The notes under the pieces were generated by a model that was given only the letters and a program-made list of their open reading frames with translations, was not told the origin of the DNA and did not search any database. Shown here piece after piece: positions 2,089-62,280 of a DNA stretch of 64,000 nucleotides (within the stretch, counting starts at the first letter, position 1; every line of letters begins with the position of its first letter). Made by a program: the position numbers and the translations under genes. The DNA lies in NCBI GenBank assembly GCA_964416445.1, contig CAYQEE010000002.1:106691-170690 (forward strand), given 5' to 3'. This stretch comes from an uncultured Gammaproteobacteria bacterium. GTDB lineage: Bacteria > Patescibacteriota > Microgenomatia > Levybacterales > UBA12049.

Positions 2089-2091
2089 GCA

Positions 2092-19099: not shown

Positions 19100-19110
19100 A
19101 ATTTAATATT

Positions 19111-19157
19111 AAAAAACCCGCATTTCGCGGGAATCTGTTTTTACGAAATCAGATTCC
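19111..19157 (-). promoter_or_regulatory. ilvA attenuator: antiterminator GGAAUCUG/CAGAUUCC and intrinsic terminator CCCGCGAAAUGCGGG-U6, ending 12 nt before the ilvA ATG
   Basis: Read on the minus strand. The hairpin plus U6 directly precedes the start codon, and its 5' arm overlaps an alternative 8-bp helix with the region just after the leader stop codon. Confidence 0.6.
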
Positions 19158-19158
19158 G

Positions 19159-19209
19159 CTACATACGGTTACTAATTGCAATAATTGAAATTTGTTTTAC
19201 GTTTCTCAT
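19159..19209 (-). CDS. Ile-rich leader peptide MRNVKQISIIAISNRM (ilvA leader, 16 aa)
   Basis: ATG begins 17 nt after the ilvC stop. Four Ile within ISIIAI. The stop is followed immediately by the antiterminator/terminator. Confidence 0.6.
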   Translation of the reverse strand: MRNVKQISIIAISNRM

Positions 19210-19225
19210 TTTAAATACACTGTTA

Positions 19226-20275: not shown

Positions 20276-20325
20276 AAATTTATTACAAGTAAGTATATAC
20301 AAATCCTTATACCAATGCAAGCTAT

Positions 20326-22014: not shown

Positions 22015-22016
22015 AC

Positions 22017-23702: not shown

Positions 23703-23728
23703 AAAAAAAATCCCCGCTGTAAGCGGGG
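23703..23728 (-). terminator. ilvB attenuator terminator CCCCGCUUACAGCGGGG-U8, abutting the ilvB ATG
   Basis: Perfect 6-bp GC stem plus 8 U on the minus strand. An alternative pairing is available with the upstream GCGGGG segment (23757-23771). Confidence 0.65.
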
Positions 23729-23763
23729 TTAAGTTTGTTTGCTCCAAGCAATCAAACCCCGCG

Positions 23764-23811
23764 TTAAGGGGTAATGACGACAAGGAGTTTAAGTGTGCTT
23801 TTCAATATCAT
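23764..23811 (-). CDS. branched-chain leader peptide MILKSTLKLLVVITP (ilvB leader, 15 aa)
   Basis: Regulatory run LLVVIT. The stop codon lies inside segment CCCCUUAACGCGGGG. Confidence 0.65.
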   Translation of the reverse strand: MILKSTLKLLVVITP

Positions 23812-23817
23812 ACGTTT

Positions 23818-23846
23818 ATTCTAACAAATAGCGTTTTTGTCGTCAA
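23818..23846 (-). promoter_or_regulatory. sigma70-type promoter TTGACG-N17-TAGAAT for the ilvB leader
   Basis: Hexamers read on the minus strand. -10 ends 6 nt before the leader ATG. Confidence 0.5.
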
Positions 23847-23858
23847 TAAGTGTTTGGA

Positions 23859-23887
23859 TTGACTTTGCTACCCATTAGAAGTAAACT
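23859..23887 (+). promoter_or_regulatory. candidate promoter TTGACT-N17-TAAACT for the suf operon
   Basis: In the divergent ilvB/suf intergenic region. AGGAGGG RBS at 23902-23908, then the GTG start at 23915. Confidence 0.4.
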
Positions 23888-23914
23888 TACACTACATTTT
23901 TAGGAGGGTACTAA

Positions 23915-24181
23915 GTGGAAAATAATACAACTCAAAAAACTCAGCGCTCCCCGTATGTTTTATCTAAATTTGATCTTCTTGGAACAATTTTAGAAGAGTG
24001 TCCAAGGGCAGCAGAATTATTAGCTGAATACGGGTTACATTGTATCAGTTGTTTTGCAAATCAGTTTGATACGTTAGAAATGGGTGCACAAGTACATGGG
24101 ATGACCGATGACGATCTTAACGATATGGTAAATGAAATTAATACTGAATTAGAACTCGAATGGAGACAGGGAAAATTATGA
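23915..24181 (+). CDS. small DUF1858-like protein (CxxC-containing), first gene of the suf cluster
   Basis: GTG start preceded by AGGAGGG. LSKFDLLGTILEECPRAAELLAEYGLHCISC resembles the DUF1858 family. The assignment is weak. Confidence 0.45.
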   Translation: MENNTTQKTQRSPYVLSKFDLLGTILEECPRAAELLAEYGLHCISCFANQFDTLEMGAQVHGMTDDDLNDMVNEINTELELEWRQGKL

Positions 24182-24927
24182 AAGCGTTAAAAATTACTGA
24201 TTTACATGTACAAACACTCGATGGGAAAAAAATATTAAACGGTGTTAATCTTGAAATAAAAACTGGTGAAATTCATGCTATTATGGGTCCGAACGGCGGT
24301 GGTAAATCAACATTCTCTCAAGTGCTCATGGGTCATCCCGGGTATGTTGTCACCCAAGGGACAATAGTTATTGATGGTATTGACATTACGTCTCTCTCCC
24401 CTGATCAACGAGCTAAACACGGGCTTTTCCTCGGTTTTCAATATCCAGTTGAAGTTGCTGGGGTTAACTTTGCAAACTATCTGAGACTCGCAATGAACGA
24501 GCAACGAAAAGAGCACGAGAAGAAGATTTCCCCAATCGCTTTTCGAAAACTTCTGGCTGAAAAAGCACAACCCTTAATGTTCAATGAGGATATTGCAAAA
24601 CGAATGCTCAATGAAGGGTTTTCGGGAGGTGAAAAGAAAAAATCAGAAATACTCCAATTAGCTATTTTGCAACCTGATTTTGCTATATTAGATGAACCAG
24701 ATTCTGGACTCGATATTGACGCCTTACGATACATTGCTAATAGTATAAATGCAATGAAGAGCAGTCTGGGATTGATTCTAATAACACATTATCAGAGGAT
24801 TCTTCGTTATATCAATCCACAATTTGTCCATATTATGATCAAAGGGAAACTTGTAGAATCAGGAAGTGGGAATCTTGCAAAAGAAATAGAAGAAAAAGGA
24901 TATGAAAATTACATTCAAAGTAATTAA
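24178..24927 (+). CDS. sufC: Fe-S cluster assembly ATPase
   Basis: GPNGGGKST Walker A, ABC signature, Walker [14 protein letters not shown] overlap with the upstream gene. Confidence 0.9.
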
Positions 24928-24932
24928 TTACT

Positions 24933-26336
24933 ATGGCATTGAACAAACAACCAGTTATCAAAGACTCTTATAAATTTGGTTTTCACAAACCAGAACTTTC
25001 TGTTTTTAAAACGCCAAAAGGATTAAATCCACAAGTAGTTGAAGCAATCTCTTACTTCAAGAAGGAACCCGCATGGATGCTAAAATTTCGACTCGATGCC
25101 TTGAAGATATTTGAGCAAAAACAGCTTCCAACATGGGGAGCAGATTTATCTGGAATTAATTTTAATGATATTTACTATTATATTAGTCCGTCAGAAAAAA
25201 AATTTCATACCTGGGACGAGGTTCCAAATGATATCAAAGACACTTATGATAAGATTGGAATACCGCAAGCTGAACGTAAGTTTTTAGCAGGTGTTGGGGC
25301 ACAATGGGATTCTGAAGTCATCTATCATAATTTAAAAACACAATGGGAAAACCAAGGTGTTATCTTTACTGATACTGATACTGCCCTTCAAAAGTATCCT
25401 GATATTTTTAAACATTATTTCGGAACTATTATCCCTCCATATGATAATAAGCTTGCAGCACTTAATTCAGCAGTTTGGAGTGGAGGTTCATTTATCTATG
25501 TACCAAAAGGTATTCATGTCGAAATTCCTTTACAAGCATATTTTAGGATAAATGCAAATAATATGGGGCAATTCGAAAGAACACTCATCATTGCAGAAGA
25601 AGGAAGTTACGTACATTACGTCGAGGGATGCACGAGCCCAATTTATACAACTGACTCCTTACACGCTGCTGTTGTTGAAATTATTGTCAAAAAAGGAGCT
25701 CGAGTTCGCTATACAACAATACAAAACTGGTCAAATAACGTTTATAACCTCGTAACAAAACGTATGAAAGTTGAAGAAGAAGGAATTGGAGAATGGATCG
25801 ATGGAAATTTAGGTTCCAAAATCACAATGAAGTACCCTTCTGTATTTTTAACAGGAAAAGGAGCTAAAGGAGAGGTACTATCACTCGCATTTGCTGGGAA
25901 AGGACAACACCAAGATGCAGGAGGAAAAGCATTTCATCTTGCTCCTTATACAACAAGCACTATTACCTCTAAATCGGTTAGTATGGGCGGAGGCAGAGCA
26001 AGTTATCGAGGAATGATAAAAATATTGAATGGTGCAAAAGGAAGTAAATCATTTGTGCGATGTGATGCATTACTCCTCGATGAACTCTCTCGTTCAGATA
26101 CATATCCTACTAATATTGTGAATGAACAAGATATTACTCTTGGACATGAAGCATCAGTCAGTAAAGTTGGTCAAGAACAACTTTTTTATCTTATGTCACG
26201 AGGTTTATCTGAGGCAGAAGCAACATCATTAATTGTTAATGGATTCATTGAACCTATTGTTAAAGAACTTCCTTTAGAATATGCTGTTGAACTGAACAGG
26301 CTTATTGAACTTTCAATGGAAGGAGCTGTTGGGTAA
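24933..26336 (+). CDS. sufB: Fe-S cluster assembly scaffold protein
   Basis: 467 aa with the SufB/SufD beta-helix core. Confidence 0.9.
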
Positions 26337-26360
26337 TATATTACTCATGATGTATCTTCT

Positions 26361-26927
26361 ATGTATAACGAAATTACTATAGAGAAAGAACAACATGTCA
26401 CTATTCCTATCCTTTGGACAGGAGAAGAAACGAATCTATCGTATTCCATTATACTTAATGGTCGTGGAGGAAAAGTAACATTTCTTGCATTGCTTTTAGG
26501 GAATAATGCGGACAATTTAACTCTGGAAACAAAAGTATACCATCAGGCACAGGATACCAAAAGTGAAATTATTGTGAGAAGTACTTTAACTGATCGTGCA
26601 CAAGTAAATTTTAACGGATTAGTATCCATAGCTCATGGCGCTAAAGGGACAAATGCATGGCTAGCAGCTCATATTTTATTGCTTTCTGATAAAGCAAAAG
26701 GTCAAGCTATTCCTAGTTTAGAAATACTGGAGAATGATATTAAAGCAGGCCACGCAACAACTGTAGGAAGAGTCCATGATAACGAACTTTTTTATCTCAT
26801 GTCACGAGGCATACCAAAACAAAAAGCAAAAGAGTTAATTGTTGAAGGTTTTTTGGAAAGTATGCTTACTCTTTTCCCAAATAAACTCGCAGAAAGAGCA
26901 AGAAAGGAACTACAAACGCATGAATAA
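26361..26927 (+). CDS. sufD: SufD-like protein, truncated (188 aa; only the C-terminal beta-helix/helical part)
   Basis: Paralogous to the sufB C-terminus (FYLMSRGIP shared), but less than half the usual SufD length. Confidence 0.65.
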   Translation: MYNEITIEKEQHVTIPILWTGEETNLSYSIILNGRGGKVTFLALLLGNNADNLTLETKVYHQAQDTKSEIIVRSTLTDRAQVNFNGLVSIAHGAKGTNAWLAAHILLLSDKAKGQAIPSLEILENDIKAGHATTVGRVHDNELFYLMSRGIPKQKAKELIVEGFLESMLTLFPNKLAERARKELQTHE

Positions 26928-28155
26928 GGCAATTTTTAACAACATAAAAGATGATTTTCCTATCTTTTCTCATTATCCAAACTTGATTTACTTGGACAAT
27001 GCAGCCACTTCACAAAAACCAAAATCAGTTATTAACGCAGTCAGTACATTCTACCAGCGGCATAATGCAAATATTCATAGGGGGATTTACTCATTAAGCC
27101 AAGATGCGACACATTTATTTGAACAAACACGGAATCAAGTAGCTCAATTTATTGGAGTAACTAATTCTCAGGAAATTGTTTTCACCGGTAATGCGTCAGA
27201 AGCAATCAATGTTGTTGCCTATGGATGGGCAAGAAAACAATTACAAAAAGGAGACATTATTATCACCACTGAGATGGAACATCACTCAAACATTGTCCCC
27301 TGGCAGCGGCTGAAAGACGAAATAGGAATTCAGTTAGTTTTTCTTCCCATAGGACCAGACTATAAGCTTGATTATAAAAAGTTAAAAGATATGTCTATTG
27401 CTTTAGACAAAATTAAACTTTTAGCAATTTCTCATGCATCAAATGTATTAGGTGTTATTAATCCCATAAATGAAATAATAACCTACTTGAAACAAATTGG
27501 TGTTCATACTAAAGTATTGGTTGATGCGGCTCAATCTATTCCCCACTTACCTATTAATGTCAATAATCTAGGATGTGATTTTCTCGTTTTTTCATCACAT
27601 AAAATGCTCGGTCCTTCAGGTGTTGGCGTACTTTGGGGAAAGAAAGAACTGCTTCTTGAGACAGATCCTTTCTTTGTTGGAAGCCATATGATTCGTAGCG
27701 TTACCAAGGAAAAAGCTACTTGGGCAGATCTTCCCGATAAATTCGAAACAGGAACTCGCAATTTAGAGGGAGTAATTGGACTAGGGGCAGCTATCAAATA
27801 CTTACAATCTGTTGACATGGAAGTTTTAATGAAACATGAACTAGATTTAACAGACTATTCGCTTCAATTATTACAAAAGATTAAAGATATTAAGGTATAT
27901 GGGCCCCAAACCTCTACCAATAGATTAGGAGTATTTTCATTTAACATTGCAAATATTCATGCACATGATGTTGCCGAGATACTCAATAGACATCATATTG
28001 CAGTACGTTCAGGACACCATTGCGCACAAACAGTTATGCAATTCATTAATGAACCAGCAACTATTCGAGCATCGTTCTATCTCTACAATACAAAAAGGGA
28101 TATTGAAAAATTAATAGAAGGAATTGAAAATGTTAAAAAAATATTTAGTTTATGA
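26920..28155 (+). CDS. sufS: cysteine desulfurase
   Basis: SHKMLGPSGVGVLWG PLP-lysine motif and catalytic Cys in RSGHHCAQ. Start MNKAIF at 26920 overlaps the sufD stop. Confidence 0.9.
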   Translation: MNKAIFNNIKDDFPIFSHYPNLIYLDNAATSQKPKSVINAVSTFYQRHNANIHRGIYSLSQDATHLFEQTRNQVAQFIGVTNSQEIVFTGNASEAINVVAYGWARKQLQKGDIIITTEMEHHSNIVPWQRLKDEIGIQLVFLPIGPDYKLDYKKLKDMSIALDKIKLLAISHASNVLGVINPINEIITYLKQIGVHTKVLVDAAQSIPHLPINVNNLGCDFLVFSSHKMLGPSGVGVLWGKKELLLETDPFFVGSHMIRSVTKEKATWADLPDKFETGTRNLEGVIGLGAAIKYLQSVDMEVLMKHELDLTDYSLQLLQKIKDIKVYGPQTSTNRLGVFSFNIANIHAHDVAEILNRHHIAVRSGHHCAQTVMQFINEPATIRASFYLYNTKRDIEKLIEGIENVKKIFSL

Positions 28156-28526
28156 ACAACGTACATGATACTCTTTATAGAGAAATTATATTAGAGCATT
28201 GGAAGAATCCATTAAACTATGGGGTTATAATAAATGCGACAATTGATATCACCGATAATAATCCACTCTGTGGAGATTCTATTAGAATTACAGCAAATTT
28301 TTCTAAAGATAATCTGACTGAAATTAAATTTACTTCTGAAGGTTGCGCAATTTCAAAAGCATCAGCCTCAATTTATACCGAAATGATAAAAAATAAATCA
28401 ATAGAAAAGCTCACATTAATAACAGAACATGCAATCCTCAATGAGCTAGGGGTAAGCTTAACTCCAGCTAGAAAAAAGTGTGCTCTGTTAGCCTATCGAA
28501 CTTTTCTAAAGGCCATAAAATCATAA
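28152..28526 (+). CDS. sufU: SufU-type sulfur transfer / Fe-S scaffold-like protein
   Basis: NPLCGDSI, SEGCAISKASAS and KKCALLAYRT motifs of the IscU/SufU family. Confidence 0.8.
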   Translation: MNNVHDTLYREIILEHWKNPLNYGVIINATIDITDNNPLCGDSIRITANFSKDNLTEIKFTSEGCAISKASASIYTEMIKNKSIEKLTLITEHAILNELGVSLTPARKKCALLAYRTFLKAIKS

Positions 28527-28584
28527 TCTCATACTATCTTATAGATTTGCCTGTAATAGATAAATATGTTATATCATAGGTAAG

Positions 28585-29184
28585 ATGGTAGTTTCGCAAG
28601 AATATTTACAAAATAGACTTCCATTTACTCCGGCAGGTAGCAATCATATTACCCATTCAATTATTTGGCCGCTCCCAAAAACACATACATCCGAAAGAAC
28701 ATTTTTAGCTATGCATGCTCACACGGCTAGACTGTCATCGTTACCTTTAAGACGAGATCATATCATGAGTATCTTACAGCAGGAAGCCAAACCATATGTG
28801 CCCCATACAGAAGTGTTATATAAAAAATATGAAGGAGGTACGGTAAAAGAAGAAACGCATCCTAATTTAGTTGGTTTAAAAAGATTTACCTCTGCAGAGG
28901 AATATGTACAAATTGGAAATGATACATTTATTCATCAAACAGATACTTTACTAAGTACTAATTCAGACAGTATTCACCCGATAGGAATTCGGCATACACG
29001 AAGAATGTTTAATCCTGAGGAATCATTCGAAATAGTGGAATATCCCAAGGGAGCAAGATACGAATTACATGGATCTCCCGATCAAGCGACGTTAGTTATT
29101 CTGTATGACCTTCCCACAGCTCAAGCTATTAATGCACCAACGCTTTTTAGGCCTCCTCTACCGAGAGAGTCATGCAGAAGATAA
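28585..29184 (+). CDS. hypothetical His-rich protein
   Basis: 199-aa ORF with no recognisable family. Slightly GC-richer than its surroundings. Convergent with leuB, overlapping it by 15 nt. Confidence 0.35.
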   Translation: MVVSQEYLQNRLPFTPAGSNHITHSIIWPLPKTHTSERTFLAMHAHTARLSSLPLRRDHIMSILQQEAKPYVPHTEVLYKKYEGGTVKEETHPNLVGLKRFTSAEEYVQIGNDTFIHQTDTLLSTNSDSIHPIGIRHTRRMFNPEESFEIVEYPKGARYELHGSPDQATLVILYDLPTAQAINAPTLFRPPLPRESCRR

Positions 29185-30249
29185 ATTTTCAAGAAATTCT
29201 ACTATTCTATCACCTACCACGGCGGTTGAAATAATTTTATTTTGTGCAGAAGTAATATCTCTTGTTCCATGTCCTTCAGTCAGTAACATCTGTACTGCAT
29301 TATAAATAGCATTTCGTTCATTTACTAAACCAAAACTATACTCCAACATCATTGCAGCTGATAAGATACAACCAATAGGATTGGCTATATTTTTCCCTGC
29401 TGCTTTTGGAAAAGATCCATGAATTGGTTCGAATAATGAAGTCTTCAATCCAATCGAAGCTGATGGTAATAAGCCGATAGAACCACTAATAACTGATGCC
29501 TCGTCAGTTAAAATATCACCAAACATATTTTCAGTAACTATGACATCAAATTCCCTTGGTCTTTTAATTATTTGCATTGCTGCATTATCAACAAACATAA
29601 AATCTACAAGAATATCAGAGTAATCATGCATCATAGATTGTACTGTTTCACGCCATAACCGTGAGGTTTCCAAAACATTCGCTTTATCTACGACAGTTAA
29701 TTTTTTCTTTCTTCTCTTGGCTAATTGAAACGCATAGGTAACAACACGCTGAATTTCATCTCTCGTGTATTCAGAAGTATCATACGCACTCGTCCGATTC
29801 TCATTTCTTCCTCGTTTACCGAAATATATTCCTCCAATAAGTTCTCGTATGACAATAAAATCAACTGCTTGAATAATTTCTTCTTTTAATGGTGAACGAG
29901 AAAGAAAGTTTCTAAAAGTAAATATGGGACGGATATTTGCATATAAACCTAAGTTCTTTCTCATTGCAAGTAATCCTTGTTCGGGACGAATTGCAATTTT
30001 TGGATCATTATCATACTTAGGATCTCCTATGGCTCCAAAGAGTATTGCATCTGATGTTTCACAAATTTCTCTCGTCTCCTCAGGATATGGACTACCTGTT
30101 TTATCAATCGCTATTGCACCTATTAATCCATCCACAAAGGTGAATTCATGATGATATTTTTGGGCAATTTTTTTTAAAACCTTTATAGCTTGTTGGGTAA
30201 TCTCAGGTCCAATACCATCACCAGGAAGAACTGCAATTATTTTTTTCAT
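29170..30249 (-). CDS. leuB: 3-isopropylmalate dehydrogenase
   Basis: AVLPGDGIGPE and NLFGDILTDEAS motifs. Confidence 0.9.
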   Translation of the reverse strand: MKKIIAVLPGDGIGPEITQQAIKVLKKIAQKYHHEFTFVDGLIGAIAIDKTGSPYPEETREICETSDAILFGAIGDPKYDNDPKIAIRPEQGLLAMRKNLGLYANIRPIFTFRNFLSRSPLKEEIIQAVDFIVIRELIGGIYFGKRGRNENRTSAYDTSEYTRDEIQRVVTYAFQLAKRRKKKLTVVDKANVLETSRLWRETVQSMMHDYSDILVDFMFVDNAAMQIIKRPREFDVIVTENMFGDILTDEASVISGSIGLLPSASIGLKTSLFEPIHGSFPKAAGKNIANPIGCILSAAMMLEYSFGLVNERNAIYNAVQMLLTEGHGTRDITSAQNKIISTAVVGDRIVEFLENLSSA

Positions 30250-30255
30250 ACGCTC

Positions 30256-30870
30256 TTAATAGGATATTGAATAGTCATTTTCTCTTGTTTTTTCAAACTC
30301 TTCAATTTTTGTTTTCATACTAAGTATATAGTCAATATCATCATACCCATTCATAACACATATTTTTTTATATGGATTCAAATCAAAATGCTCATACATG
30401 TTCATTGAGGGAATGCCAACAACTTGTTTGTCTACATTAATATCAATTATTGTTTTGGAGTCATGTAGTATAGTATTAAATAACTCGTTAAGAAAGTTCT
30501 GAGAGACCTGGACAGGTAATAAACTATTATTAAGCGCGTTATTCTTGAAAATATCTGCAAAGTAACTTGAAATTACCGCTTTAAATCCATAATCGGCTAA
30601 AGCCCACGCCGCATGTTCTCTACTCGACCCACATCCAAAGTTATATCCTGCAACCAGAATTTCACCAGTATAATCTGGATGATTAAGAATAAAGTGTGGT
30701 TTCGGATTCCCATCCATATCATATCGCCAATCTCGAAAAACATTTAATCCAAAACCTTCACGAGAAGTTGCTTTTAAAAAACGTGCAGGAATAATTTGAT
30801 CTGTATCAACATTCTCCATTTGTAATGGAACTGCTGTTGAAGTAATTTTAGACAATTGTTTTCTTTTCAT
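30256..30870 (-). CDS. leuD: 3-isopropylmalate dehydratase small subunit
   Basis: Aconitase swivel-domain motifs GCGSSREHA. Confidence 0.9.
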
Positions 30871-32276
30871 ATCATATCCCTGACATCAGTCACATATCCC
30901 GTTATTGCAGCAGCCGCAGCAGTTATTGGGCTAGCAAGGAATGTTCTCGCTCCCGGGCCTTGTCTACCCTGGAAATTTCTGTTTGAGGTTGAAATACAAT
31001 ATTTGCCTGTTGGGATTTTGTCATCATTCATGCCTAAACAAGCAGAGCATCCCGAACCACGCACATCAAAACCAGCTTCAAGAAAAATTTTATCTAATCC
31101 TTCTTTTCTTACTTGTGCTTCAACTTGTTTTGAGCCAGGCACAACAAGAACAGTCACATCACGAGGCTTTTTCTTTCCTTTTACGATTTGCGCTACCATT
31201 CGAAAATCTTCTATTCGAGAATTGGTACAACTACCAAGAAAAACATAATCTACCTTTTGTCCAATCATTTTTTTCCCGGGCTGTAAACCCATATAAGTCA
31301 TTGCTTTACGAAAACTCTCCTGCTGTGAACTGGTTTCAAATATATCTTCTGTTGGAATAGTTTTTGTAATTCCCATGCCCATTCCAGGATTAGTTCCATA
31401 TGTTATCATCGGTTCGATATCCTTTGCATCTATAGATATTTGCTTATCATAAATTGCTCCTTTATCTGTTCTTAACGATCTCCAATAAGTAACAGCTTGA
31501 TTCCAAGCTTCGCCTTTTGGCATAAATTTGCGATTTTTCATATATGCAAATGTTGTATCATCGGGAGCAATCAATCCACCTCGCGCTCCCATTTCTATAC
31601 TCATATTACAAATAGTCATTCGTGCTTCCATCGATAAACTTTCAATAGCTGAACCTGAATATTCAACAAAGTACCCTGTACCTCCTGCTGTGGAGATTTT
31701 TGAGATGATATAAAGAATAATATCTTTAGAAACAACGCCCTTCCCTAATTTACCTTCAATTTTGATATTCATTGTTTTTGGTTTATATTGCAAAATTGAT
31801 TGAGTAGCCAATACTTGCTCAACTTCACTTGTTCCTATTCCAAAGGCAATACATCCAAACGCCCCATGTGTCGATGTATGACTATCCCCACACACAACTG
31901 TCATTCCTGGTTTGGTTATACCGAGTTCAGGACCAATAACATGAACTATTCCTTGATAAGGGTGTCCTAATCCATAAAGTTCTACTTGAAAATCTTCACA
32001 ATTTTTCTTTAACATCTCAACTTGTCTTCTTGATAATTCTTCGCGAATTGGTTTATCTTGATCTTTGGTTGGAACATTATGATCCATCGTAGCCCATGTC
32101 CTTTTGGTCCGAAAAACAGGAATACCTCGCTTACGTAAGCCTGAAAATGCTTGCGGGCTTGTCACTTCATGAACGAGATGCGCATCGATATAAAGAATTG
32201 CTGGATAGTCTTCTTTTTGAAATACTACATGGCTGTTCCAAATTTTTTCAAAAAGTGTTTTCGGTTCACTTTGCAT
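30867..32276 (-). CDS. leuC: 3-isopropylmalate dehydratase large subunit
   Basis: Aconitase family with CGDSHT, GSCTNSR and CSACLG motifs. Confidence 0.9.
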
Positions 32277-32280
32277 ATTA

Positions 32281-33774
32281 TTATCCTATTATTTTACTTA
32301 AACTATCGAGATATGCTCGTACTGTAGCAACAATAATATCGGTATCTGATCCGAAACCATAGAAAACATTACCTTTAAAGGCAATCTGAATATGCACTTT
32401 TCCTATATCATCACTCCCCCCAGTTACTGCCTGAATAAGGAATTCTTCAAGATTCACTTTCTTTTTAATAATTTTATTTACTGCATTAAATGCTGCATCT
32501 ACGGGACCATTTCCTGTCGAACTAGCAATTTCCTCAATTCCATTTACCAATAATTTGACAGAAGCCATTGGATATAAGGGAGTTCCACAAACCACTTCAA
32601 GAAACTCTAATTTTATTCCTGCGTCTTTAATAGATCCTCCCATAAGGATATGCAAATCATTATCATTGACGTCCTTTTTCTTATCTGCTAATGTTAAAAA
32701 TTTTTCATAGATTCCATCTAATTCTTGCGACGTTACTTTATACCCAAGTCTCTCTAAATGATGATTCAACGCAGATCTACCTGAACGTGCTGTCAAGGCT
32801 AGTGAAGATTCATTAATACCAACATCTTTGGGATTTATTATTTCGTAAGTAAATCGATTCTTTAAAATTCCGTTTTGATGAATTCCTGATGAGTGCGCAA
32901 AGGCATTTCTTCCAACAATTGCTTTATTTGCTTGGATTGGCATTCGCATCAATCGTGAGACTAGCCTACTTGTAGGATAAATTTTTCTTGTATTAATATT
33001 CGATAATACCTTGAGATCTTTTCTTGTTTTCATAATCATTACTGCTTCTTCTAAAGAGGTATTTCCTGCTCGCTCCCCCACACCATTTATAGTTACTTCC
33101 ACTTGCCTTGCACCATTTTGAACTGCAGCAATTGTATTAGCAGTTGCCATTCCTAAATCATTATGACAATGAACTGAAACAATAACATTTTCAATTCCTT
33201 TTACATGTTCATAAAGATATTTAATTTTTTCACCAAATTCGTTAGGTAAACAGTAGCCAGTGGTATCAGGAATATTAACAGTTGTTGCACCTGCCTCAAT
33301 TGCTGCTTGGATAAACTTTGCTAAAAATTCATTTTCTGTTCTCCCCGCATCCATTGCAGAAAATTCGACATCTTCCACATATTGTTTTGCATGTTTCACT
33401 GATGCAACTGCTTGTTCCAAGATCTTTTCTCTAGTAGATCGGAATTGATGAATAATATGAATATCAGAACTACTAATAAATGTATGGATTCGTTTATTCT
33501 TTGCAAATTTTAACGATTCAGCTGCACAATCAATATCTGCAGGTATTGCTCGTGATAGGGCACAGATAATTGGCTCTGTAACAACCTTTGAGATCTCTTG
33601 TACAGAATGTAAATCTCCTGGACTTGATATTGGAAATCCAGCTTCAATAACATCTACACCAAGTTCGCTAAGAGCAGTCGCAACTTCAATTTTTTCAACT
33701 GTATTGAGTTGGCAACCCGGTACCTGTTCTCCATCACGTAGTGTTGTATCAAAAATATAAACTTTATCTTTCAT
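32281..33774 (-). CDS. leuA: 2-isopropylmalate synthase
   Basis: [11 protein letters not shown] and HCHNDLG motifs, with a LeuA dimerisation/regulatory C-terminus. Confidence 0.9.
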
Positions 33775-33785
33775 ATTTTACCTAT

Positions 33786-33806
33786 AAAAAAACCCGCTCT
33801 TCGCGG
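33786..33806 (-). terminator. leu attenuator terminator CCCGCGAAGAGCGGG-U7, ending 11 nt before the leuA ATG
   Basis: Its 5' arm UCCCGC can alternatively pair with GCGGGA, which overlaps the leader stop codon (antiterminator). Confidence 0.65.
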
Positions 33807-33839
33807 GAGTTCGTTTGTTACTAGCCAAACAATCCCGCC

Positions 33840-33884
33840 TTAAACGGAAAGGAGTGAAAGGCCAAGAAGTAAATTTTTTATCAT
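33840..33884 (-). CDS. Leu-rich leader peptide MIKNLLLGLSLLSV (leu leader, 14 aa)
   Basis: 6 of 14 residues are Leu. Stop UAA directly abuts the GGCGGGA antiterminator segment. Confidence 0.65.
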   Translation of the reverse strand: MIKNLLLGLSLLSV

Positions 33885-33893
33885 AGTTCGTTT

Positions 33894-33923
33894 ATTGTAA
33901 CAATTATGAGACTATTTCGTCAA
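33894..33923 (-). promoter_or_regulatory. promoter TTGACG-N18-TACAAT for the leu leader
   Basis: -10 ends 9 nt before the leader ATG. Confidence 0.5.
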
Positions 33924-33930
33924 TAGTACT

Positions 33931-34860
33931 TTATTTTATAGATATTGTTGTGCACCATGATTCATATTCTTTATCTTCTCCTCTAACTATTTTAAAGAAT
34001 TTATCTTGTAATTTTGCTGTAATTGTCCCCCGTTTTCCGTTCCCAATAATTCTCTTATCAATTTTTGCTACCCAAGCAACCTGACAGCCAGTACCTGAAA
34101 GAAACACTTCGTCAGCAACATATAATTCACTACGATCTACGGTTCTTGCCTCAATGGGAATACCCATATCTTTTGCAATTTTCATGAGTGATCTTCGAGT
34201 AATTCCTTCGAGAACATCATCTCCTGCAGCTGGAGTAATGAGTACACCATCACGAATAATAAATAAATTTTCAGCTGAACCTTCACAAACACTTCCTGCT
34301 TCAGATAACATTATTGCTTCATCGTATCCATTTTCATGAGCCTCTTTTCTTGCTAGAGCTGAGTTTACATAACCTCCCGATATTTTTGCTCGTGAAGGTA
34401 TTGCATTATCTGATATTCTCCTCCATGAAGAAACCATTAATGATAATCCTTTACTAACTGGTAAATATTCACCTAAAGGGATCATATATAATGCGAAATC
34501 CAGTACTGTATCTGCTAAATTAGGTCCAAGATTTGTATGACCAACATATGCATAGGGACGTAAGTAGACATCGGTTTGTGGCCTATTCTTTTTGATTAAA
34601 TCTAGCGTGTTTTCACGAAGTTGCTCTTTTGTATAAGGAAGACTACAGCCTAATATTTTTACTGATGATAAAAAACGTTTATAGTGATCATCAATTCTAA
34701 AAACTGAAATACTTCCCTTTTTGGTATTTACATATCCGCGAATTCCTCCAAAGATTCCTGTACCATATTGGAGAGCATTCGTCATAATTGAGACTTTTGC
34801 GTCTTCAATTTTTATGATATTTCCTTGAAAATATGCATACGGAAATGGTGTTGAATTCAT
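33931..34860 (-). CDS. ilvE: branched-chain amino acid aminotransferase (fold type IV)
   Basis: YGTGIFGGIRGY and EGSAENLF...TGCQV motifs. Confidence 0.85.
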   Translation of the reverse strand: MNSTPFPYAYFQGNIIKIEDAKVSIMTNALQYGTGIFGGIRGYVNTKKGSISVFRIDDHYKRFLSSVKILGCSLPYTKEQLRENTLDLIKKNRPQTDVYLRPYAYVGHTNLGPNLADTVLDFALYMIPLGEYLPVSKGLSLMVSSWRRISDNAIPSRAKISGGYVNSALARKEAHENGYDEAIMLSEAGSVCEGSAENLFIIRDGVLITPAAGDDVLEGITRRSLMKIAKDMGIPIEARTVDRSELYVADEVFLSGTGCQVAWVAKIDKRIIGNGKRGTITAKLQDKFFKIVRGEDKEYESWCTTISIK

Positions 34861-39491: not shown

Positions 39492-41018
39492 CTAAGATAA
39501 CCAATTGCAAATAACATCTTCAATGAGTTTTTTTTTAACTGCATAATATTCTTTAAATCTTATTTCTTTCGATCGTAATCCACTTATATTTTCAGGAATA
39601 TCCACTCCAGAAATCACGCTATTAATCTGTGAAAGTATTTCAAATTCATTCGTAAAAGTATGCTCTTCATTTACTAGTGAACTATAAATATTTTTAATAA
39701 ATTTTGACCAGTGAGCAGTGGAACAAATCAGTAAAGGTAGTTTATGCTCTGTCTTCATCTGAAATTGTTCACCTATTTTTTGAGCAACTGATGTATGTGG
39801 ATCTATAATATAGTTTGTTTCATAAAATATCTTTGTTATATTCTGTAAACACGCTGTATTATTAACCCATCCTGCATAAAACTCATTTTGTAAGATTCGT
39901 TTCGTTTCAGTATCCACTTCAAATCTTCCATTTTCCATTAAGTTCTTCATCCATACAGTAACCTTACCAGTGTTATTTGTAATTAGATATAAAAGTCGTT
40001 CTATATTACTCGCAATAAGAATATCCATTGAAGGTGAAGGAGTTTTAATTAATGACCTATTATTTATTGAATAAACACCAGTTTGCAAAAAATCTACAAG
40101 AACATTATTTTCATTAGATGCACAAATAAGTTTACGGATGGGTAACCCCATTAATTTTGCATAATACGCTGCAAGAAGATTCCCAAAATTTCCTGTAGGA
40201 ACGACAAGATCAATTTGTTGGCCTAATTCAATTTTGTTCCTATTAATTAATTCTAAATAACTACTTATATGATAAATTATTTGAGGAAGTAATCTCCCCC
40301 AGTTAATTGAATTTGCCGAAGAAAGTTTAATATTACGATTTTTCATCATATTTTGAAAAATTTTGTCCTTAAAAATTTCTTTAACAAGATTTTGAACATT
40401 ATCAAAATTACCTTCCAGGGCAAAAACACCAAGATTGCTCCCTTCTTGCGTAACCATTTGAAGTTCTTGCAACTGGGAGACGTGATCTTTAGGATAAAAA
40501 ACAAGAAGGTTAATATCTTTCTTATTTTTGTATCCTTCTAATGCTGCTTTTCCAGTATCTCCTGACGTAGCAACAAGAATAAGATATTGAACTGGTTTCT
40601 TACCTTGTTTAATAAGAAGCAAATTATTTCGTTTAACTGCTTTTTGAAAAAATAGAGGCATTATTTGTAATGCTAAATCTTTAAATGCTAATGTAGGACC
40701 ATGCCAAAGCTCCAACACAAATTGATTTTCTTTCAAAGGATGTACTGGTACTATTTGTTTATGTCTAAAATTAACCCCATATGCTTCTTTAACTATTTTT
40801 TTTAATGAAGCATATGAAAAATCTGTTTGAAAACTATTTAATATTGCAACTGCAATTTCTTGATACGATTTTCCTACCAAGTGCTGTAATTGAGTTTTCG
40901 TAAACTTAGGTATTTTCGTAGGGACAAATAAACCTCCATCTCGGGCAATATTATTAAGAATAACTTCTGAAAATGTAAATACTTTGGTGTCTCCTCGAGT
41001 ACTTTTGTAGTTAATCAT
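39492..41018 (-). CDS. thrC: threonine synthase (long form, about 500 aa)
   Basis: WHGPTLAFKD PLP-lysine motif and overall long ThrC architecture. Confidence 0.9.
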   Translation of the reverse strand: MINYKSTRGDTKVFTFSEVILNNIARDGGLFVPTKIPKFTKTQLQHLVGKSYQEIAVAILNSFQTDFSYASLKKIVKEAYGVNFRHKQIVPVHPLKENQFVLELWHGPTLAFKDLALQIMPLFFQKAVKRNNLLLIKQGKKPVQYLILVATSGDTGKAALEGYKNKKDINLLVFYPKDHVSQLQELQMVTQEGSNLGVFALEGNFDNVQNLVKEIFKDKIFQNMMKNRNIKLSSANSINWGRLLPQIIYHISSYLELINRNKIELGQQIDLVVPTGNFGNLLAAYYAKLMGLPIRKLICASNENNVLVDFLQTGVYSINNRSLIKTPSPSMDILIASNIERLLYLITNNTGKVTVWMKNLMENGRFEVDTETKRILQNEFYAGWVNNTACLQNITKIFYETNYIIDPHTSVAQKIGEQFQMKTEHKLPLLICSTAHWSKFIKNIYSSLVNEEHTFTNEFEILSQINSVISGVDIPENISGLRSKEIRFKEYYAVKKKLIEDVICNWLS

Positions 41019-41637
41019 ATCTTTCTATTACTTCAAGCAATAAATCTTCAGAAAATCTCTCATGTCGTAGTAAATGATAATCAAAGATAATTTCAGCTAG
41101 CTTTTTGTATTTATCCGTTCGAAACAACAAAAGTTTTTCATAACATCGCGCGAGAGCTTCTTTTGGAGATTCTCCTTCCTGTAAGGAAAATGCATCTCCC
41201 CAAATGATAGGCTTTGGATCACGTACAAATAATTCAAACATCTGACGTTTAACTCGATATGGAGTATGCAGATAAACCATTTTTGAGTATTGTGATAATT
41301 GGTTAAGAATATCAGCATGGGTATAAATTAAACTTCCTGTCGTGTCAACAACGATATTTTCATCGGAAGCAGTTTTGATTTTCTCAATTACTTCACGCAT
41401 TACTTCGATTTCATATTGAAGATATTTTGCACTCGTCTTCTTATATCTATGTTCATATGGATATCCCATCCATTTTGCAACATCTTGTATGCCTGTGTAA
41501 CCTAATTTTTTAAGTTCATGTGATAACTTCTCTTCAATAAGATCGTCACAGCAGATTCTTATAAATCCTTTCTTTTCTAATTTCTTTGACCAAAATGATT
41601 TGCCAGAACCTGATATACCTACCAATGTAACTATCAT
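41011..41637 (-). CDS. P-loop kinase of the shikimate-kinase/NMP-kinase fold, at the operon position normally held by homoserine kinase
   Basis: Walker A GISGSGKS, acidic CDD region, DTTGS and VYL segments matching the shikimate kinase pattern. 8-nt overlap with thrC, 45 nt after hom. Confidence 0.6.
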   Translation of the reverse strand: MIVTLVGISGSGKSFWSKKLEKKGFIRICCDDLIEEKLSHELKKLGYTGIQDVAKWMGYPYEHRYKKTSAKYLQYEIEVMREVIEKIKTASDENIVVDTTGSLIYTHADILNQLSQYSKMVYLHTPYRVKRQMFELFVRDPKPIIWGDAFSLQEGESPKEALARCYEKLLLFRTDKYKKLAEIIFDYHLLRHERFSEDLLLEVIERYD

Positions 41638-41682: not shown

Positions 41683-42762
41683 TTATCCATGTGATACTCC
41701 TTTTACTCTTCTTGCAATAGTTAAAATGTCTCCAAATACTCCAGCGGCAGTAACATCAATACCTGCTCCAGGACCTTTAATTATTAATGGATTATTAAAA
41801 TATCTTTTTGTTTTAATAACAAATAAATTATCTGTACCCTTTAAGCTACCCATATCACTTGTTTTTGACACAGCCTGTAATCCTACTTCGCAGGTATTTC
41901 TATTTATTTCAGCAACATATCGCAAATGCATATTATTTTTACTCTCAATTGCAGAACGTTGAAGATATTCTGCATCGAGATCTGGTAAAAGTTTTAGAAA
42001 TTCATGACTTTTTAGATTGTTCATATACCTAGGAAAAAGTCCAGCCAATCGGACTTTTTCAAATTCTGACGGCCAACCGCAAAGTCGCGATAGTATTAAT
42101 GCTTTTCTTGCCACGTCCATTCCCGAAAGGTCACTCCGTGGATCTGGTTCAGCAAAACCTTTATTTATTGCTGAATATACAGTCTCTGAAAAAAGTTTAC
42201 CTCGCTCCATTTGTGAGAAAATGTATCCTAACGTTCCACTTAAACAACCATGAATTTCTAGTATTTCATCTCCTGTATCTCGTAATGTTCTTATCGTCTG
42301 AATAACTGGTAATCCTGCACCAACTACTGTTTCAAAATAAAGTACATGACCCTTTACTTGTTGGAGTTCATCATACTGTTTTTGTGAATGGGAAAGTGGT
42401 TTTTTATTAGCCATAACAACAAAACCATTTTGACGCATAGCCTGACAAATATGCGCAATGGTTTTATCAGATGCTGTAGTGTCTATCAGAACAAAAGGAT
42501 AGTTAATTAGTTCAATTGCCTTTTTGATATTTTTTTCATTATCTTCGGCGACTTGACTTTGGTGTAACTCCAATACTAGATCTGAATAGGTACTAAACGA
42601 AATTCCATCTTTATTAAAAATTCCTTTCTGAGAAGTGAATAATCCACAATACGTGAGTTCAATTCCATACTCTTGTTTAATCCATACCTGTTGATTAATA
42701 ATTTGTTCAACTACTTTTCTACCAATATTTCCCATTCCTAAGTGAATAATATTCAATTTCAT
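41683..42762 (-). CDS. hom: homoserine dehydrogenase (no ACT domain)
   Basis: GMGNIGRKV NAD site and catalytic-domain motifs GAGAGLPVI and LSGTLGYIF. Confidence 0.85.
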   Translation of the reverse strand: MKLNIIHLGMGNIGRKVVEQIINQQVWIKQEYGIELTYCGLFTSQKGIFNKDGISFSTYSDLVLELHQSQVAEDNEKNIKKAIELINYPFVLIDTTASDKTIAHICQAMRQNGFVVMANKKPLSHSQKQYDELQQVKGHVLYFETVVGAGLPVIQTIRTLRDTGDEILEIHGCLSGTLGYIFSQMERGKLFSETVYSAINKGFAEPDPRSDLSGMDVARKALILSRLCGWPSEFEKVRLAGLFPRYMNNLKSHEFLKLLPDLDAEYLQRSAIESKNNMHLRYVAEINRNTCEVGLQAVSKTSDMGSLKGTDNLFVIKTKRYFNNPLIIKGPGAGIDVTAAGVFGDILTIARRVKGVSHG

Positions 42763-42763: not shown

Positions 42764-43678
42764 TTAACTATCTTTACATATCTTTGTTCCGATAAAATCA
42801 GGGTTAAAAGTATTTTTTACCCAAACAGGTATTCCTTTTAGAGAGACAGGTATCATTGCCTCGGGATGTAAAATTTTTGCTCCCTTTTTTGAAAGCAATA
42901 AAGCATCTTCGTAGCTTAATTGAGAATATAACTTCGCATTTTGATTTACATGAGGATCACTACAATACACGCCGTTAACTTCTTTCCAAAGAATTACTTG
43001 CGTTGCATCGAAAATATAGGCAAGCAAAGTAGCACTATAATCAGAACCTCCCCTTCCTAAACTTATAATTGTTCCATTTTTTGTTGATGCAAAAAAACCT
43101 GTCACTATAGGAACTATTTTTTTTCTGATAAGTGGAACTACTAGCTTATCAGCGTTACATGTTGTTTCTTTCACAAGTACAATTGGATTGGATAAATCTT
43201 TCAAAATAATAATCTCCGAAGCATTTATTGCTCTTGCTGAATTCTCATACTTATTCAATGCCGCAGCTACTAGATGACTACTAAATCGTTCCCCATACGT
43301 TATGATATATTCATAATCAACTTGAGAAAGTGTCCTTCTCTGTTTCAAATTGTCTTGTAATGTTTTGTATAAATCATACAGAGATTCTTCTAGATTCTGG
43401 AAAATATTTTTGGGTAATTGTAACTCTTTAAGAACCTGCATATGAAGTTCATAGAGCAGTCGCAATTCATAATCTCCTTCTTCAAATTCGTTTTCTTTAT
43501 ATTTATTAAATACTGAGATAAGTTTATCTGTTACCTTGTACATTGCGGAGACGACAACAAGAATATCGTCATGCCTGCGAAATTTTCTAATAATTTCAGC
43601 TACATGTAATATCTTACCTCCAGACTCTAGTGATGATCCACCAAATTTCATTACAATCATACTCTGTTTTATAAACAT
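42764..43678 (-). CDS. aspartate kinase, catalytic domain only (304 aa, no ACT regulatory domains)
   Basis: VMKFGGSSL N-terminal motif of the amino-acid kinase family. Too short to hold the usual two C-terminal ACT domains. Confidence 0.75.
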   Translation of the reverse strand: MFIKQSMIVMKFGGSSLESGGKILHVAEIIRKFRRHDDILVVVSAMYKVTDKLISVFNKYKENEFEEGDYELRLLYELHMQVLKELQLPKNIFQNLEESLYDLYKTLQDNLKQRRTLSQVDYEYIITYGERFSSHLVAAALNKYENSARAINASEIIILKDLSNPIVLVKETTCNADKLVVPLIRKKIVPIVTGFFASTKNGTIISLGRGGSDYSATLLAYIFDATQVILWKEVNGVYCSDPHVNQNAKLYSQLSYEDALLLSKKGAKILHPEAMIPVSLKGIPVWVKNTFNPDFIGTKICKDS

Positions 43679-43702
43679 AAAAAAACCTCCCTTTGGGAGG
43701 TT
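43679..43702 (-). terminator. thr attenuator terminator AACCUCCCAAAGGGAGGUU-U7, abutting the aspartokinase ATG
   Basis: An alternative 12-bp antiterminator GGGAG(U)GUUUGUA/UACAAACCUCCC involves the last leader-peptide codons. Confidence 0.65.
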
Positions 43703-43723
43703 TGTAAGTTTATTTGTTATTCA

Positions 43724-43792
43724 CTACAAACACTCCCAAACAAATTGGGTAATTGTAGTAATACTAATACTTATATATTGATAATGTTGCAT
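43724..43792 (-). CDS. Thr/Ile-rich leader peptide MQHYQYISISITTITQFVWECL (thr leader, 22 aa)
   Basis: Run ISISITTIT (4 Ile, 3 Thr) like the E. coli thr leader. Stop UAG lies inside the antiterminator 5' strand. Confidence 0.65.
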   Translation of the reverse strand: MQHYQYISISITTITQFVWECL

Positions 43793-43798
43793 AAAAAT

Positions 43799-44034
43799 AA
43801 AAAAAACCGCCGTCAAATATTACGCTTGTAATATTCAAAGGCGGATATTCTCCGTGGTTCCACTTTGATTCCTCTTACGAGGCACTTATCAGTTCTTTAT
43901 CGGAAACTATCCGTTTTAGCTTCTCAGGTTGTCCTCCGGAAAGACTTTATGCTGAAAGCTTACACTCATTGGCTTTCTTCTCTATACATGCCATCTTCCC
44001 CTTCTCGTCTAAGTCCAATCGCTAAATTAAAACT
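43799..44034 (-). promoter_or_regulatory. T-box riboswitch-like leader (about 235 nt) ending in its own intrinsic terminator, upstream of the thr leader peptide
   Basis: Minus strand. Antiterminator CAAAG-[UGGAACC bulge]-A-CGGA-GAAUA-UCCG-C-CUUUG (+43836..43867). Stem III-like CCUC-GUAA-GAGG just upstream. AGAGA bulge followed by hairpin GAAAGC-N12-GCUUUC (Stem I distal-like). Terminator CCGCCUUUGAAUAUUAC...GUAAUAUUUGACGGCGG-U8 (+43799..43844) sequesters CUUUG. Confidence 0.55.
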
Positions 44035-44040: not shown

Positions 44041-44069
44041 ATTCTAACGAACAAATAAAAACTTGTCAA
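44041..44069 (-). promoter_or_regulatory. promoter TTGACA-N17-TAGAAT for the thr control region
   Basis: Perfect -35 and near-consensus -10 with a 17-nt spacer; read on the minus strand. Confidence 0.5.
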
Positions 44070-45741: not shown

Positions 45742-46485
45742 TTAGAGCTTTAAAAAATCGAATATTTTTTTTTGTTCTTGCAATGATTCCACAACTAAAT
45801 CTGCACCCACTGCGGCTAATTGTTCCTTCGTATAAGCTCCCGTTGCAACCGCAATACATTCTAATCCTCCTGCTTTTGCACAGGCAACATCTAATGGTGA
45901 ATCCCCAACAATGACAAAATGCTTTAAAGGAAGTAATTGAGGTTGTTCAAGTAACGCACTCGCACGAGATATTGCTATAGGAATAAGATCAACACGTTTG
46001 TCAGCCATATCACCGAACGCTCCATAGTCTAGATACTGCCTGAGACCAGCTCCTTCTACTTTTTTCCACCCTATTTCTTCAATATTGCCGGTAAGTAATC
46101 CTAAGGGAAGCCCTTCATGTCGCAAATGAGCTAAAAGTTCAGGAGCTCCAGGAGTCGGAAGAAAGGCATCCTCTCCTTCATGTACCCGATAATATGCACG
46201 CATAGCCTGTATTGCATCGGGTAGTCTCGCGTGGATAGCTTGAACTGGGTAGCCATTCAGCTTGACCACTTCAGATATAATTTGCCGGTCAATCATCCCA
46301 TCAGGTGTAATTTGGTTAATTGAAGCATGAGGAAGTCCATATACCTGACTAAATGCAAAATTAAAGGCTCCAACATGAGTTTTATTATTTCCCATAACAA
46401 GCGTTTTATCAATATCAAGTAAAGGTAATTTTACTCCTCTTTTTAATAATTCTTGTCCTCGCATTCGTTCGGGTATTCCACTCAT
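45742..46485 (-). CDS. HAD-superfamily hydrolase (phosphatase)
   Basis: LLDIDKTLV motif I and a GDS..D motif. Visibly GC-richer than the neighbouring genes. Confidence 0.6.
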   Translation of the reverse strand: MSGIPERMRGQELLKRGVKLPLLDIDKTLVMGNNKTHVGAFNFAFSQVYGLPHASINQITPDGMIDRQIISEVVKLNGYPVQAIHARLPDAIQAMRAYYRVHEGEDAFLPTPGAPELLAHLRHEGLPLGLLTGNIEEIGWKKVEGAGLRQYLDYGAFGDMADKRVDLIPIAISRASALLEQPQLLPLKHFVIVGDSPLDVACAKAGGLECIAVATGAYTKEQLAAVGADLVVESLQEQKKIFDFLKL

Positions 46486-53837: not shown

Positions 53838-54350
53838 CTACGAAAAGCTATCGATAATTCTTTCTATGCATTGCGTTTGAGATAGTTGTTCCGTGTTCAA
53901 AATAATAGCTCCTTCATAAGGATTTTTTTTAATATTGTCATAGATCTCTTGTAAAGTATCATTGCCAATAGGTCTTCTTATATAATTTGTTGCTTCCACA
54001 CGTTGCGTATCCCGTTCTAAAAGTGTCTGCAGTGAACAAGTTAACTGAAATACTTTTACAGGAATATTACGCTTTTGAGCTTCTTGCGTTGCTTGTCTCA
54101 GAATATCCAGGTGGACATCACGAAATATGCCATCCATAACAACGCTCAATCCATTTTTAAGTAAATACTGCAACACGGGCAGTGAAGTTCTGTAGGCATA
54201 CAGTAACTGTTCCTCCGTTTCTTCTCCAAAAAAATCTTTAAAGTTATCAATTTTTAACCATACTGTTTTCATTTGAAAGTTACGAAATGATTTTGCGAGA
54301 GTAGTTTTCCCACTAGCTGGCGCACCACGAAAAATTATAAGCCGTTGCAT
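53838..54350 (-). CDS. P-loop kinase-like ATPase (AAA_33-like)
   Basis: Walker A GAPASGKTT. Confidence 0.5.
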   Translation of the reverse strand: MQRLIIFRGAPASGKTTLAKSFRNFQMKTVWLKIDNFKDFFGEETEEQLLYAYRTSLPVLQYLLKNGLSVVMDGIFRDVHLDILRQATQEAQKRNIPVKVFQLTCSLQTLLERDTQRVEATNYIRRPIGNDTLQEIYDNIKKNPYEGAIILNTEQLSQTQCIERIIDSFS

Positions 54351-62234: not shown

Positions 62235-62280
62235 GAGAAAATTATACCAGAAGTCCGTGTAGTGAACTAAACAAGCAAAA

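Follow-up and report, generated by a model that had tools for sequence, protein, structure and literature searches.

In Escherichia coli, the homoserine kinase ThrB of the thrABC operon has the GHMP fold. A second kind of homoserine kinase has been described in Desulfovibrio vulgaris Miyazaki F, where mutants of DvMF_0971, annotated as a shikimate kinase (SK), are rescued by threonine, the cloned gene complements an E. coli thrB deletion, and the genome carries another, essential shikimate kinase (Price et al. 2018, PMC5764234). The NCBIfam model NF040667 (hom_kin_desulfo, "homoserine kinase") traces back to DvMF_0971. Further homoserine kinases were said to be still awaiting discovery (PMC5764234), and homoserine kinase was a low-confidence step in 20% of 148 prototrophic microbes in GapMind (PMC7311316). 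Here we analyze a stretch of 64,000 nt (contig CAYQEE010000002.1, assembly GCA_964416445.1), referred to as the window, and an open reading frame (ORF) within it at 41011–41637 on the minus strand, whose 208-residue product we call X. X has a shikimate kinase fold and, as read from its sequence and context, is very probably an ATP-dependent L-homoserine kinase (EC 2.7.1.39) that replaces the GHMP-type ThrB.

An earlier note on this DNA had held that no P-loop enzyme had been described as a homoserine kinase. This is wrong, because DvMF_0971 was reported in that role in 2018 (PMC5764234) and is modeled by NF040667; a shikimate-kinase-related P-loop homoserine kinase is a kind of enzyme already established. 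What is new here is best described as a distinct, widespread and unannotated sister family, together with previously unrecognized trifunctional fusions of aspartokinase (AK), homoserine dehydrogenase (HD) and this kinase.

We compared the window operon with E. coli thrABC. The gene order and the pathway logic are the same. However, the GHMP fold of E. coli ThrB is replaced in the window by the unrelated P-loop fold of X, and whereas E. coli ThrA is an intact bifunctional AK-HD, the AK and hom genes of the window are the two halves of a ThrA-type protein, with an AK that lacks ACT domains. Control also differs, since E. coli thrABC is regulated by a leader-peptide attenuator and the window operon, by prediction, by a threonine (Thr) T-box.

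The threonine operon of the window

X lies third in the minus-strand cluster aspartokinase-hom-X-thrC (Table 1), in which the flanking genes are securely identified by TIGR00657, Homoserine_dh and TIGR00260, respectively. X starts with an ATG codon, has AAAGGA as its ribosome-binding site, and its stop overlaps the start of thrC by 8 nt (ATGATTAA); the two genes are translationally coupled. AK passes TIGR00657 (238.4 bits against a cutoff of 208.7) and aligns to positions 1–298 of PRK09436, the model of bifunctional AK-HD I. The best NCBIfam match of hom is the same model at positions 466–815 (332.8 bits). Thus, AK and hom resemble a ThrA-type AK-HD that has been cut in two, with the regulatory region gone, and the lack of ACT domains suggests that threonine exerts no allosteric feedback on them. 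In many relatives, about 500 nt of extra sequence lies between the AK and hom matches.

The ORF and the four-gene operon with its 8-nt overlap stand where the earlier note had placed them, and its statement that the window lacks a GHMP-type ThrB was borne out. None of the window ORFs scanned was a GHMP kinase, a member of the SKI family or an aro gene. A regular expression for GHMP motif II (PxGSGLGSSA-like) gave 0 matches in the 1,146,273 nt of the window and 84 loci of relatives, and tblastn with E. coli ThrB returned nothing significant in the window and these loci.

Relationship of X to shikimate kinases and to the Desulfovibrio homoserine kinase

By computation, X adopts the NMP-kinase-like P-loop fold of shikimate kinase, with 14–24% identity to shikimate kinases such as the M. 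tuberculosis enzyme (MtSK; PDB 1L4U, 2IYQ). Searches with Pfam returned only generic P-loop matches, among which AAA_33 was just over threshold at 29.2 bits. The SKI family (PF01202) reached 16.3 bits (E = 0.011), under its gathering score of 22.1, and the AroK model PRK05057 gave 14.9 bits against a cutoff of 195. Of the checks proposed in the earlier note, AAA_33 and the shikimate kinase fold were recovered; SKI stayed below threshold.

The top NCBIfam match of X is NF040667 (29.5 bits, E = 5.7e-7). The same model is the top curated match for 40 of 40 members of the X family (30 aligned relatives and 10 distant representatives), at 24–56 bits, with a highest score of 56.2 bits. Shikimate kinase models (AroK/AroL) always score below NF040667 and match only 7–9 of 30 members, the E values of these matches reaching about 1e-5 at best. 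Among other homoserine-phosphorylating analogues, X showed no match to the PGM-like TIGR02535 or the HAD-type ThrH models. The similarity to NF040667 is strongest around the DTTGS strand region (model positions ~60–110). Relative to the 163 positions of this model, X has about 45 additional residues, with insertions located in the substrate-binding lobe and behind the LID. Two short members, P0255 and P0262, were considered as intermediates towards the Desulfovibrio model and rejected, as they are X-family proteins with loop deletions.

By hidden Markov model (HMM) score, X lies outside the narrow NF040667 family and belongs to a distinct sister family. Both are P-loop, shikimate-kinase-related proteins that stand in, or in the case of X would stand in, for GHMP ThrB. 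However, the activity of DvMF_0971 has been shown by genetics and thrB complementation, whereas the X family is known from sequence. The X family is also often operon-linked or fused, and is found mainly in Patescibacteria/Peregrinibacteria and in non-Desulfovibrio Desulfobacterota, Chloroflexota, Nitrospinota and Acidiferrales.

We explored the extent of the family with phmmer against 1.84 billion cluster representatives, which gave 635 matches at E ≤ 1e-3, of which 497 reached E ≤ 1e-10 and 179 reached E ≤ 1e-30. When each GTDB species was scanned through one genome, relatives turned up in 531 stretches. Members from Patescibacteria come from Roizman-, Levyi-, Gottesman- and Daviesbacteria, Microgenomates, metagenome-assembled genomes (MAGs) labeled Saccharibacteria, and Peregrinibacteria/Peribacteria. 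At 40–45% identity, members occur in Desulfobacterota, Anaerolineae and other Chloroflexota, Acidiferrales and Nitromaritima, and one was found in the cultured sulfate reducer Desulforhabdus amnigena. Their public labels are "hypothetical protein" (NCBI) or "shikimate kinase" (JGI, UniRef), and never homoserine kinase; our literature search found no paper on the family, in Patescibacteria or elsewhere. Loci L005, L008, L010, L012, L013, L017, L018, L035 and others are TPA_asm MAG records that carry Patescibacteria-like thr operons under titles such as "uncultured Gammaproteobacteria", "Thermoplasmatales archaeon" and "Methanosarcinales archaeon". These titles seem unreliable, and we drew no taxonomic conclusions from them. 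One Desulfobacteraceae MAG contains two X paralogues, neither of them thr-linked (L076 and L077; CAZONI010000093.1 and CAZONI010000002.1); this may mean that members of the family have diverged in function, or that the bin is contaminated.

Active-site residues

To compare the active sites, the ligand-binding residues of MtSK were taken from the table of Fucile et al. 2008 (PMC2593004), mapped onto X by hhalign and counted in 83 family members. The MtSK sequence used was verified as identical to PDB 1L4U over 176 residues. The Walker A residues are invariant or nearly so: G9 (G7 in X) and K15 (K13) are kept in 83 of 83 members, and G14 (G12) and S16 (S/T14) are also kept. The same holds for D34 (D31), E61 (E76), G80 (G101) and P118 (P143), each in 83 of 83, for R136 (R173) in 82 of 83, and for Y140 (Y177). 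MtSK R117 corresponds to K142 of X, a position occupied by K in 58, H in 13 and R in 7 of the 83 sequences.

The residues that contact shikimate have changed. R58 is replaced by L (L73 in X) in 78 of 83 members, and the GGG motif of the shikimate site has become T100-G101-S102, with G79 replaced by T in 80 of 83 and G81 by S in 83 of 83. F49 is replaced by M or L (M57 in X) and T17 by Y, H or F, while the Mg ligand D32 of shikimate kinase is C, S, G, N or T in the family (C29 in X). Eight residues are invariant or near-invariant and new to the X family, mostly within the insertions: W16, W56, G58, P60, D98, Y105, W146 and E156. This pattern is what would be expected of an active phosphotransferase that binds an alcohol bearing a carboxylate and has lost shikimate binding.

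We propose how such a site would work. The Walker A residues K13 and S14 and the LID lysine K142 would hold ATP-Mg, the invariant D31 would position and activate the acceptor hydroxyl, and the invariant R173 would bind the substrate carboxylate. The insertions in the substrate-binding lobe and behind the LID (~45 residues in all), which bear W56, G58, P60, D98, W146 and E156, would reshape the pocket for a small amino acid. Some of the new residues would bind the amino group of homoserine, although D98 could instead serve as a Walker-B-like Mg ligand that makes up for the loss of D32.

A precedent for this kind of adaptation is given by the plant proteins SKL1 and SKL2, which are homologous to shikimate kinase but lack some of its shikimate-binding residues and have acquired other functions (Fucile et al. 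2008, PMC2593004). Like X, they re-use the shikimate kinase scaffold after the loss of shikimate contacts. Unlike X, they are eukaryotic, their function is unrelated to threonine synthesis, and the residues lost are different ones.

Gene neighborhood of the X family

Next, we compared gene neighborhoods in the 80 best species-representative loci, with flanks of up to 8 kb, many of them shortened by contig ends. The link of X to hom and thrC, proposed in the earlier note as a test of the assignment, is kept in many relatives. Of the 80 loci, 48 have at least one gene of the Asp-to-Thr pathway. A thrC gene is found no more than 300 nt from X in 36 loci, 25 contain hom, 20 contain asd, and thrS falls inside the flank in 12. 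Several gene orders occur. In the closest relative (L090, X 60% identical), the operon is AK-hom-asd-X-thrC, with neighbors verified by Pfam, and the same five genes are found with overlapping reading frames in L012. In L048, the order is X-AK-hom-asd, and thrC lies upstream of X in L007, L039 and L062. The complete 1.45-Mb Roizmanbacteria genome CP065004.1 has thrS-X-thrC-infC-rpmI-rplT-pheST. Both classes of thrC, of ~508 and ~430 residues, are found linked to X. Neither the window ORFs scanned nor six loci annotated with Pfam showed an aro gene beside X. The sole candidate for the homoserine kinase in the five-gene operons is X, because every other Asp-to-Thr step is covered there.

Members that are not linked to thr genes carry the same invariant residues as linked members. 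They differ notably only at the LID residue K142, where 39% of the unlinked set have H and some further members of it have R or other residues.

In L090, the thr operon has a DUF2000 (PF09391) gene after thrC (10631–11065), and in L089 such a gene lies between X and thrS (2417–2851); we saw none downstream of the window thrC. The DUF2000 protein is a possible further threonine-related partner.

Fusion of X to aspartokinase and homoserine dehydrogenase

In Peregrinibacteria/Peribacteria-labeled genomes, X forms the C-terminal domain of long fusion proteins. P0127 (1031 aa) comprises AA_kinase, two ACT domains, NAD_binding_3, Homoserine_dh and an X domain at residues 825–1028. It was found on two independent contigs, and on the one of 350 kb it is followed by thrC, which overlaps it by 1 nt. 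The same full-length architecture is present in at least 19 different 90%-identity clusters that are 50–70% identical to P0127, and the AK-ACT-HD-X fusions P0127, P0390–P0406 and P0415 span 1001–1094 aa. We confirmed in the DNA that the reading frame is uninterrupted in L072 (5487–8621, 1044 aa, followed by thrC and then asd) and in L036 (5475–8618, 1047 aa). A related Peregrinibacteria locus, L068, has split genes for AK-HD (812 aa) and X (223 aa).

The AK-ACT-HD portion of the fusions is intact as in E. coli ThrA, but carries X at its C-terminus; a trifunctional AK-HD-kinase polypeptide is not known from E. coli. Because the JGI label reads only "bifunctional aspartokinase / homoserine dehydrogenase 1", the third domain has escaped notice.

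A T-box leader upstream of the operon

Upstream of AK, the window contains a T-box leader with a Thr specifier (Table 1), which carries the T-box motif AAAGUGGAACCACGG. A related leader is found directly upstream of AK-hom-asd-X-thrC in L090 (5150–5338, 47.1 bits, 80% identical to the window leader). Both alignments span the full RF00230 model with the stem II region deleted, and the terminator of the window leader is conserved in L090. We built a covariance model, R1, from these two leaders, and with it a much more diverged leader was found directly upstream of X-thrC in L022 (997–1238, 62 bits). The specifiers are ACA-A in the window, ACU-A in L090 and ACC-A in L022; all are Thr codons that differ in the wobble base alone and are followed by a conserved purine.

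Since the operon lies behind a T-box with a Thr specifier, it is predicted to be switched on when tRNA-Thr is uncharged. Uncharged tRNA-Thr would thus induce AK-hom-X-thrC, X included. No tRNA-Thr gene was found in the DNA analyzed. We found no paper on T-box riboswitches in the candidate phyla radiation (CPR). In L090, a second T-box leader (3622–3787) is found upstream of SHMT (glyA), immediately ahead of the thr operon.

The region 43679–43830 (minus strand), which separates the T-box terminator from the AK start, has further structure. A second hairpin, AAACCUCCCAAAGGGAGGUUUUUUU, stands directly before the AK start codon and holds GGAGG, the would-be AK ribosome-binding site. A further conserved stem-loop, ACUACAA...UUGUAGU around CCCAAU...UUGGG, is also seen here, together with a small Thr/Ile-rich ORF starting at 43816 (...ISISITTIT...). 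The Rfam "Phe_leader" family matched the region before AK weakly, at 34 bits against a gathering score of 55. The region could be a second, tandem control element, possibly a leader-peptide attenuator.

Table 1 Features of the threonine operon and its leader region in the window.
Feature	Position	Strand	Description
thrC	39492..41018	-	Threonine synthase, 508 aa, long form; TIGR00260 equivalog 243.5 bits (cutoff 167.1); Pfam Thr_synth_N
X	41011..41637	-	208-aa shikimate-kinase-fold P-loop kinase; candidate ATP-dependent homoserine kinase
hom	41683..42762	-	Homoserine dehydrogenase, ThrA-type, without ACT; Pfam Homoserine_dh 154 bits and NAD_binding_3
Aspartokinase (AK)	42764..43678	-	Catalytic domain only, 304 aa; Pfam AA_kinase 161 bits, residues 7-289
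Second hairpin	43683..43703	-	AAACCUCCC-AAA-GGGAGGUUU and U-run; terminator-like scan: 9 pairs, 5 G-C; directly before AK start codon
T-box terminator hairpin	43800..43851	-	CCGCC...GGCGG and U-run, visible in sequence; palindromic match of model R1 at positions 188-239
T-box leader	43834..44028	-	Thr specifier ACA, then A; RF00230 51.4 bits, E 2.1e-10, full model 1-219
Promoter-like element	44041..44069	-	TTGACA-17-TAGAAT; 11/12 consensus matches, best in scanned region; upstream of the leader; consensus match only

Function of X and alternative readings

Five independent lines of computation (operon conservation, the AK-HD fusions, the Thr T-box, the residue pattern and the nearest characterized relative) indicate that X is very probably a homoserine kinase, which gives strong support to the non-orthologous replacement in the thrB position suggested in the earlier note. 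X would make O-phospho-L-homoserine for the downstream, translationally coupled threonine synthase. Both this substrate and the dependence on ATP are what we infer from the evidence above.

Several observations weigh against this assignment. X misses the curated NF040667 cutoff of 197 bits with its score of 29.5, and there is no asd gene in the 64-kb window. In 32 of the 80 loci, no thr-pathway gene lies within 8 kb of X; these are mostly from larger Desulfobacterota and Chloroflexota genomes. The T-boxes of the window and L090 score below the RF00230 gathering score of 93, which seems to reflect the lack of the stem II region; Rfam called no leader at the gathering threshold, and the T-box was seen only at a relaxed threshold. 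The L022 leader was not called by RF00230 at E ≤ 0.01 and was found only with the two-leader covariance model. The view of this genome covers 64 kb, so a GHMP thrB may be present elsewhere, or X may be accompanied by no other shikimate kinase. Finally, all of the support for homoserine kinase function in the X family is computational.

An unlikely alternative is that X is a threonine-pathway kinase with another substrate or role. It might transfer phosphate to threonine or serine, accept both homoserine and shikimate as substrates in reduced genomes, or serve as a regulatory kinase or ATPase on AK or HD. The gene context and T-box would fit such a protein, as they point to threonine supply and leave the exact reaction unspecified, and the missing ACT domains of the window AK make other forms of control conceivable. 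The variation of K142 in some unlinked members and the paralogue pair in a single MAG could be read in the same way. However, threonine synthase needs O-phosphohomoserine, for which the five-gene operons encode no other source, and the fusions set X directly after the domain that produces homoserine. D31 and R173 are acceptor-site residues for a small-molecule substrate with a hydroxyl and a carboxylate, and the nearest characterized relative is a homoserine kinase.

It is very improbable that X is an ordinary shikimate kinase (AroK/AroL) that lies in the thr operon by chance, with the homoserine kinase encoded elsewhere. The SKI score is below threshold, every member tested scores higher with the homoserine kinase model than with any shikimate kinase model, and across the 83 members other residues consistently stand in place of R58, G79, G81, F49 and the Mg ligand D32. 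These results stand against the shared fold, the weak SKI/AroK matches in 7–9 of 30 members, the "shikimate kinase" labels of JGI and UniRef, and the 64-kb limit of the view. The linkage of X is to thrC, hom, asd and thrS, with none to aro in the window or the six annotated loci, and X is fused to AK-HD and belongs to an operon under a predicted Thr-specific T-box. Least credible is a degenerate, non-catalytic P-loop protein kept to support threonine synthase or homoserine dehydrogenase structurally, as a partner or scaffold, which the coupling to thrC and the fusions to AK-HD would allow, but which does not fit the active-kinase pattern of (near-)invariant G7/G12/K13, D31, D98, G101, S102 and R173 in 83 sequences from several phyla.

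With X read as a homoserine kinase, the findings can be joined. We hold with moderate confidence that the X family is a second, independently diverged branch of homoserine kinases with the shikimate kinase fold, possibly ancestral to the Desulfovibrio clade. It would then be the main homoserine kinase of threonine-making Patescibacteria and of many Desulfobacterota, Chloroflexota and Nitrospinota, and its fusions would be the first trifunctional AK-HD-kinase proteins, under a Thr T-box in the CPR. If so, a sizeable share of the "missing ThrB" gaps in genome-based pathway reconstruction would be explained.

Homoserine kinase is among the steps most often reported missing in genome-predicted amino-acid biosynthesis. 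Recognition in this role of the X family, which is present in at least 531 species-level genomes and whose "shikimate kinase" label is misleading, would correct predictions of threonine auxotrophy, above all in CPR/Patescibacteria, and would prevent a step of the shikimate pathway from being called wrongly. Unusually clean and independent genomic evidence for the assignment comes from the AK-HD-X fusions and the Thr T-box, and the family offers a testable case of one small kinase scaffold re-tuned from shikimate to an amino acid.

Other genes in the window

The window has a GC content of ~34% and encodes a full branched-chain amino-acid set at 17855–34860, with ilvA, ilvC, probable ilvD and ilvB, leuB, leuD, leuC, probable leuA, and ilvE. 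Given IlvA and the ilv/leu genes, threonine is therefore both made and consumed. Patescibacteria are usually described as lacking amino-acid biosynthesis; this Patescibacteria-like organism has a genuine capacity for amino-acid biosynthesis and can put threonine to use.

Other ORFs were considered as relevant kinases or phosphotransferases and rejected. The HAD ORF at 45742–46485 is not a ThrH-type homoserine phosphotransferase, as it gave weak phosphoglycolate-phosphatase matches and not ThrH. Two minus-strand P-loop ORFs, at 53838–54350 and 61746–62348, were rejected as the real aroK; they are AAA_33/zeta-toxin-like and show weak similarity to PSTK and gluconokinase.

On the minus strand at 1594–3876, a folate/pterin cluster encodes HPPK and GTP cyclohydrolase I, with a 120-aa ORF between these two, and dihydropteroate synthase (Pterin_bind). 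Suf genes are also present, and an ORF on the plus strand within 24933–28155 overlaps the predicted start of a SufS-like aminotransferase and could be a truncated SufD or reflect a mis-set start codon.

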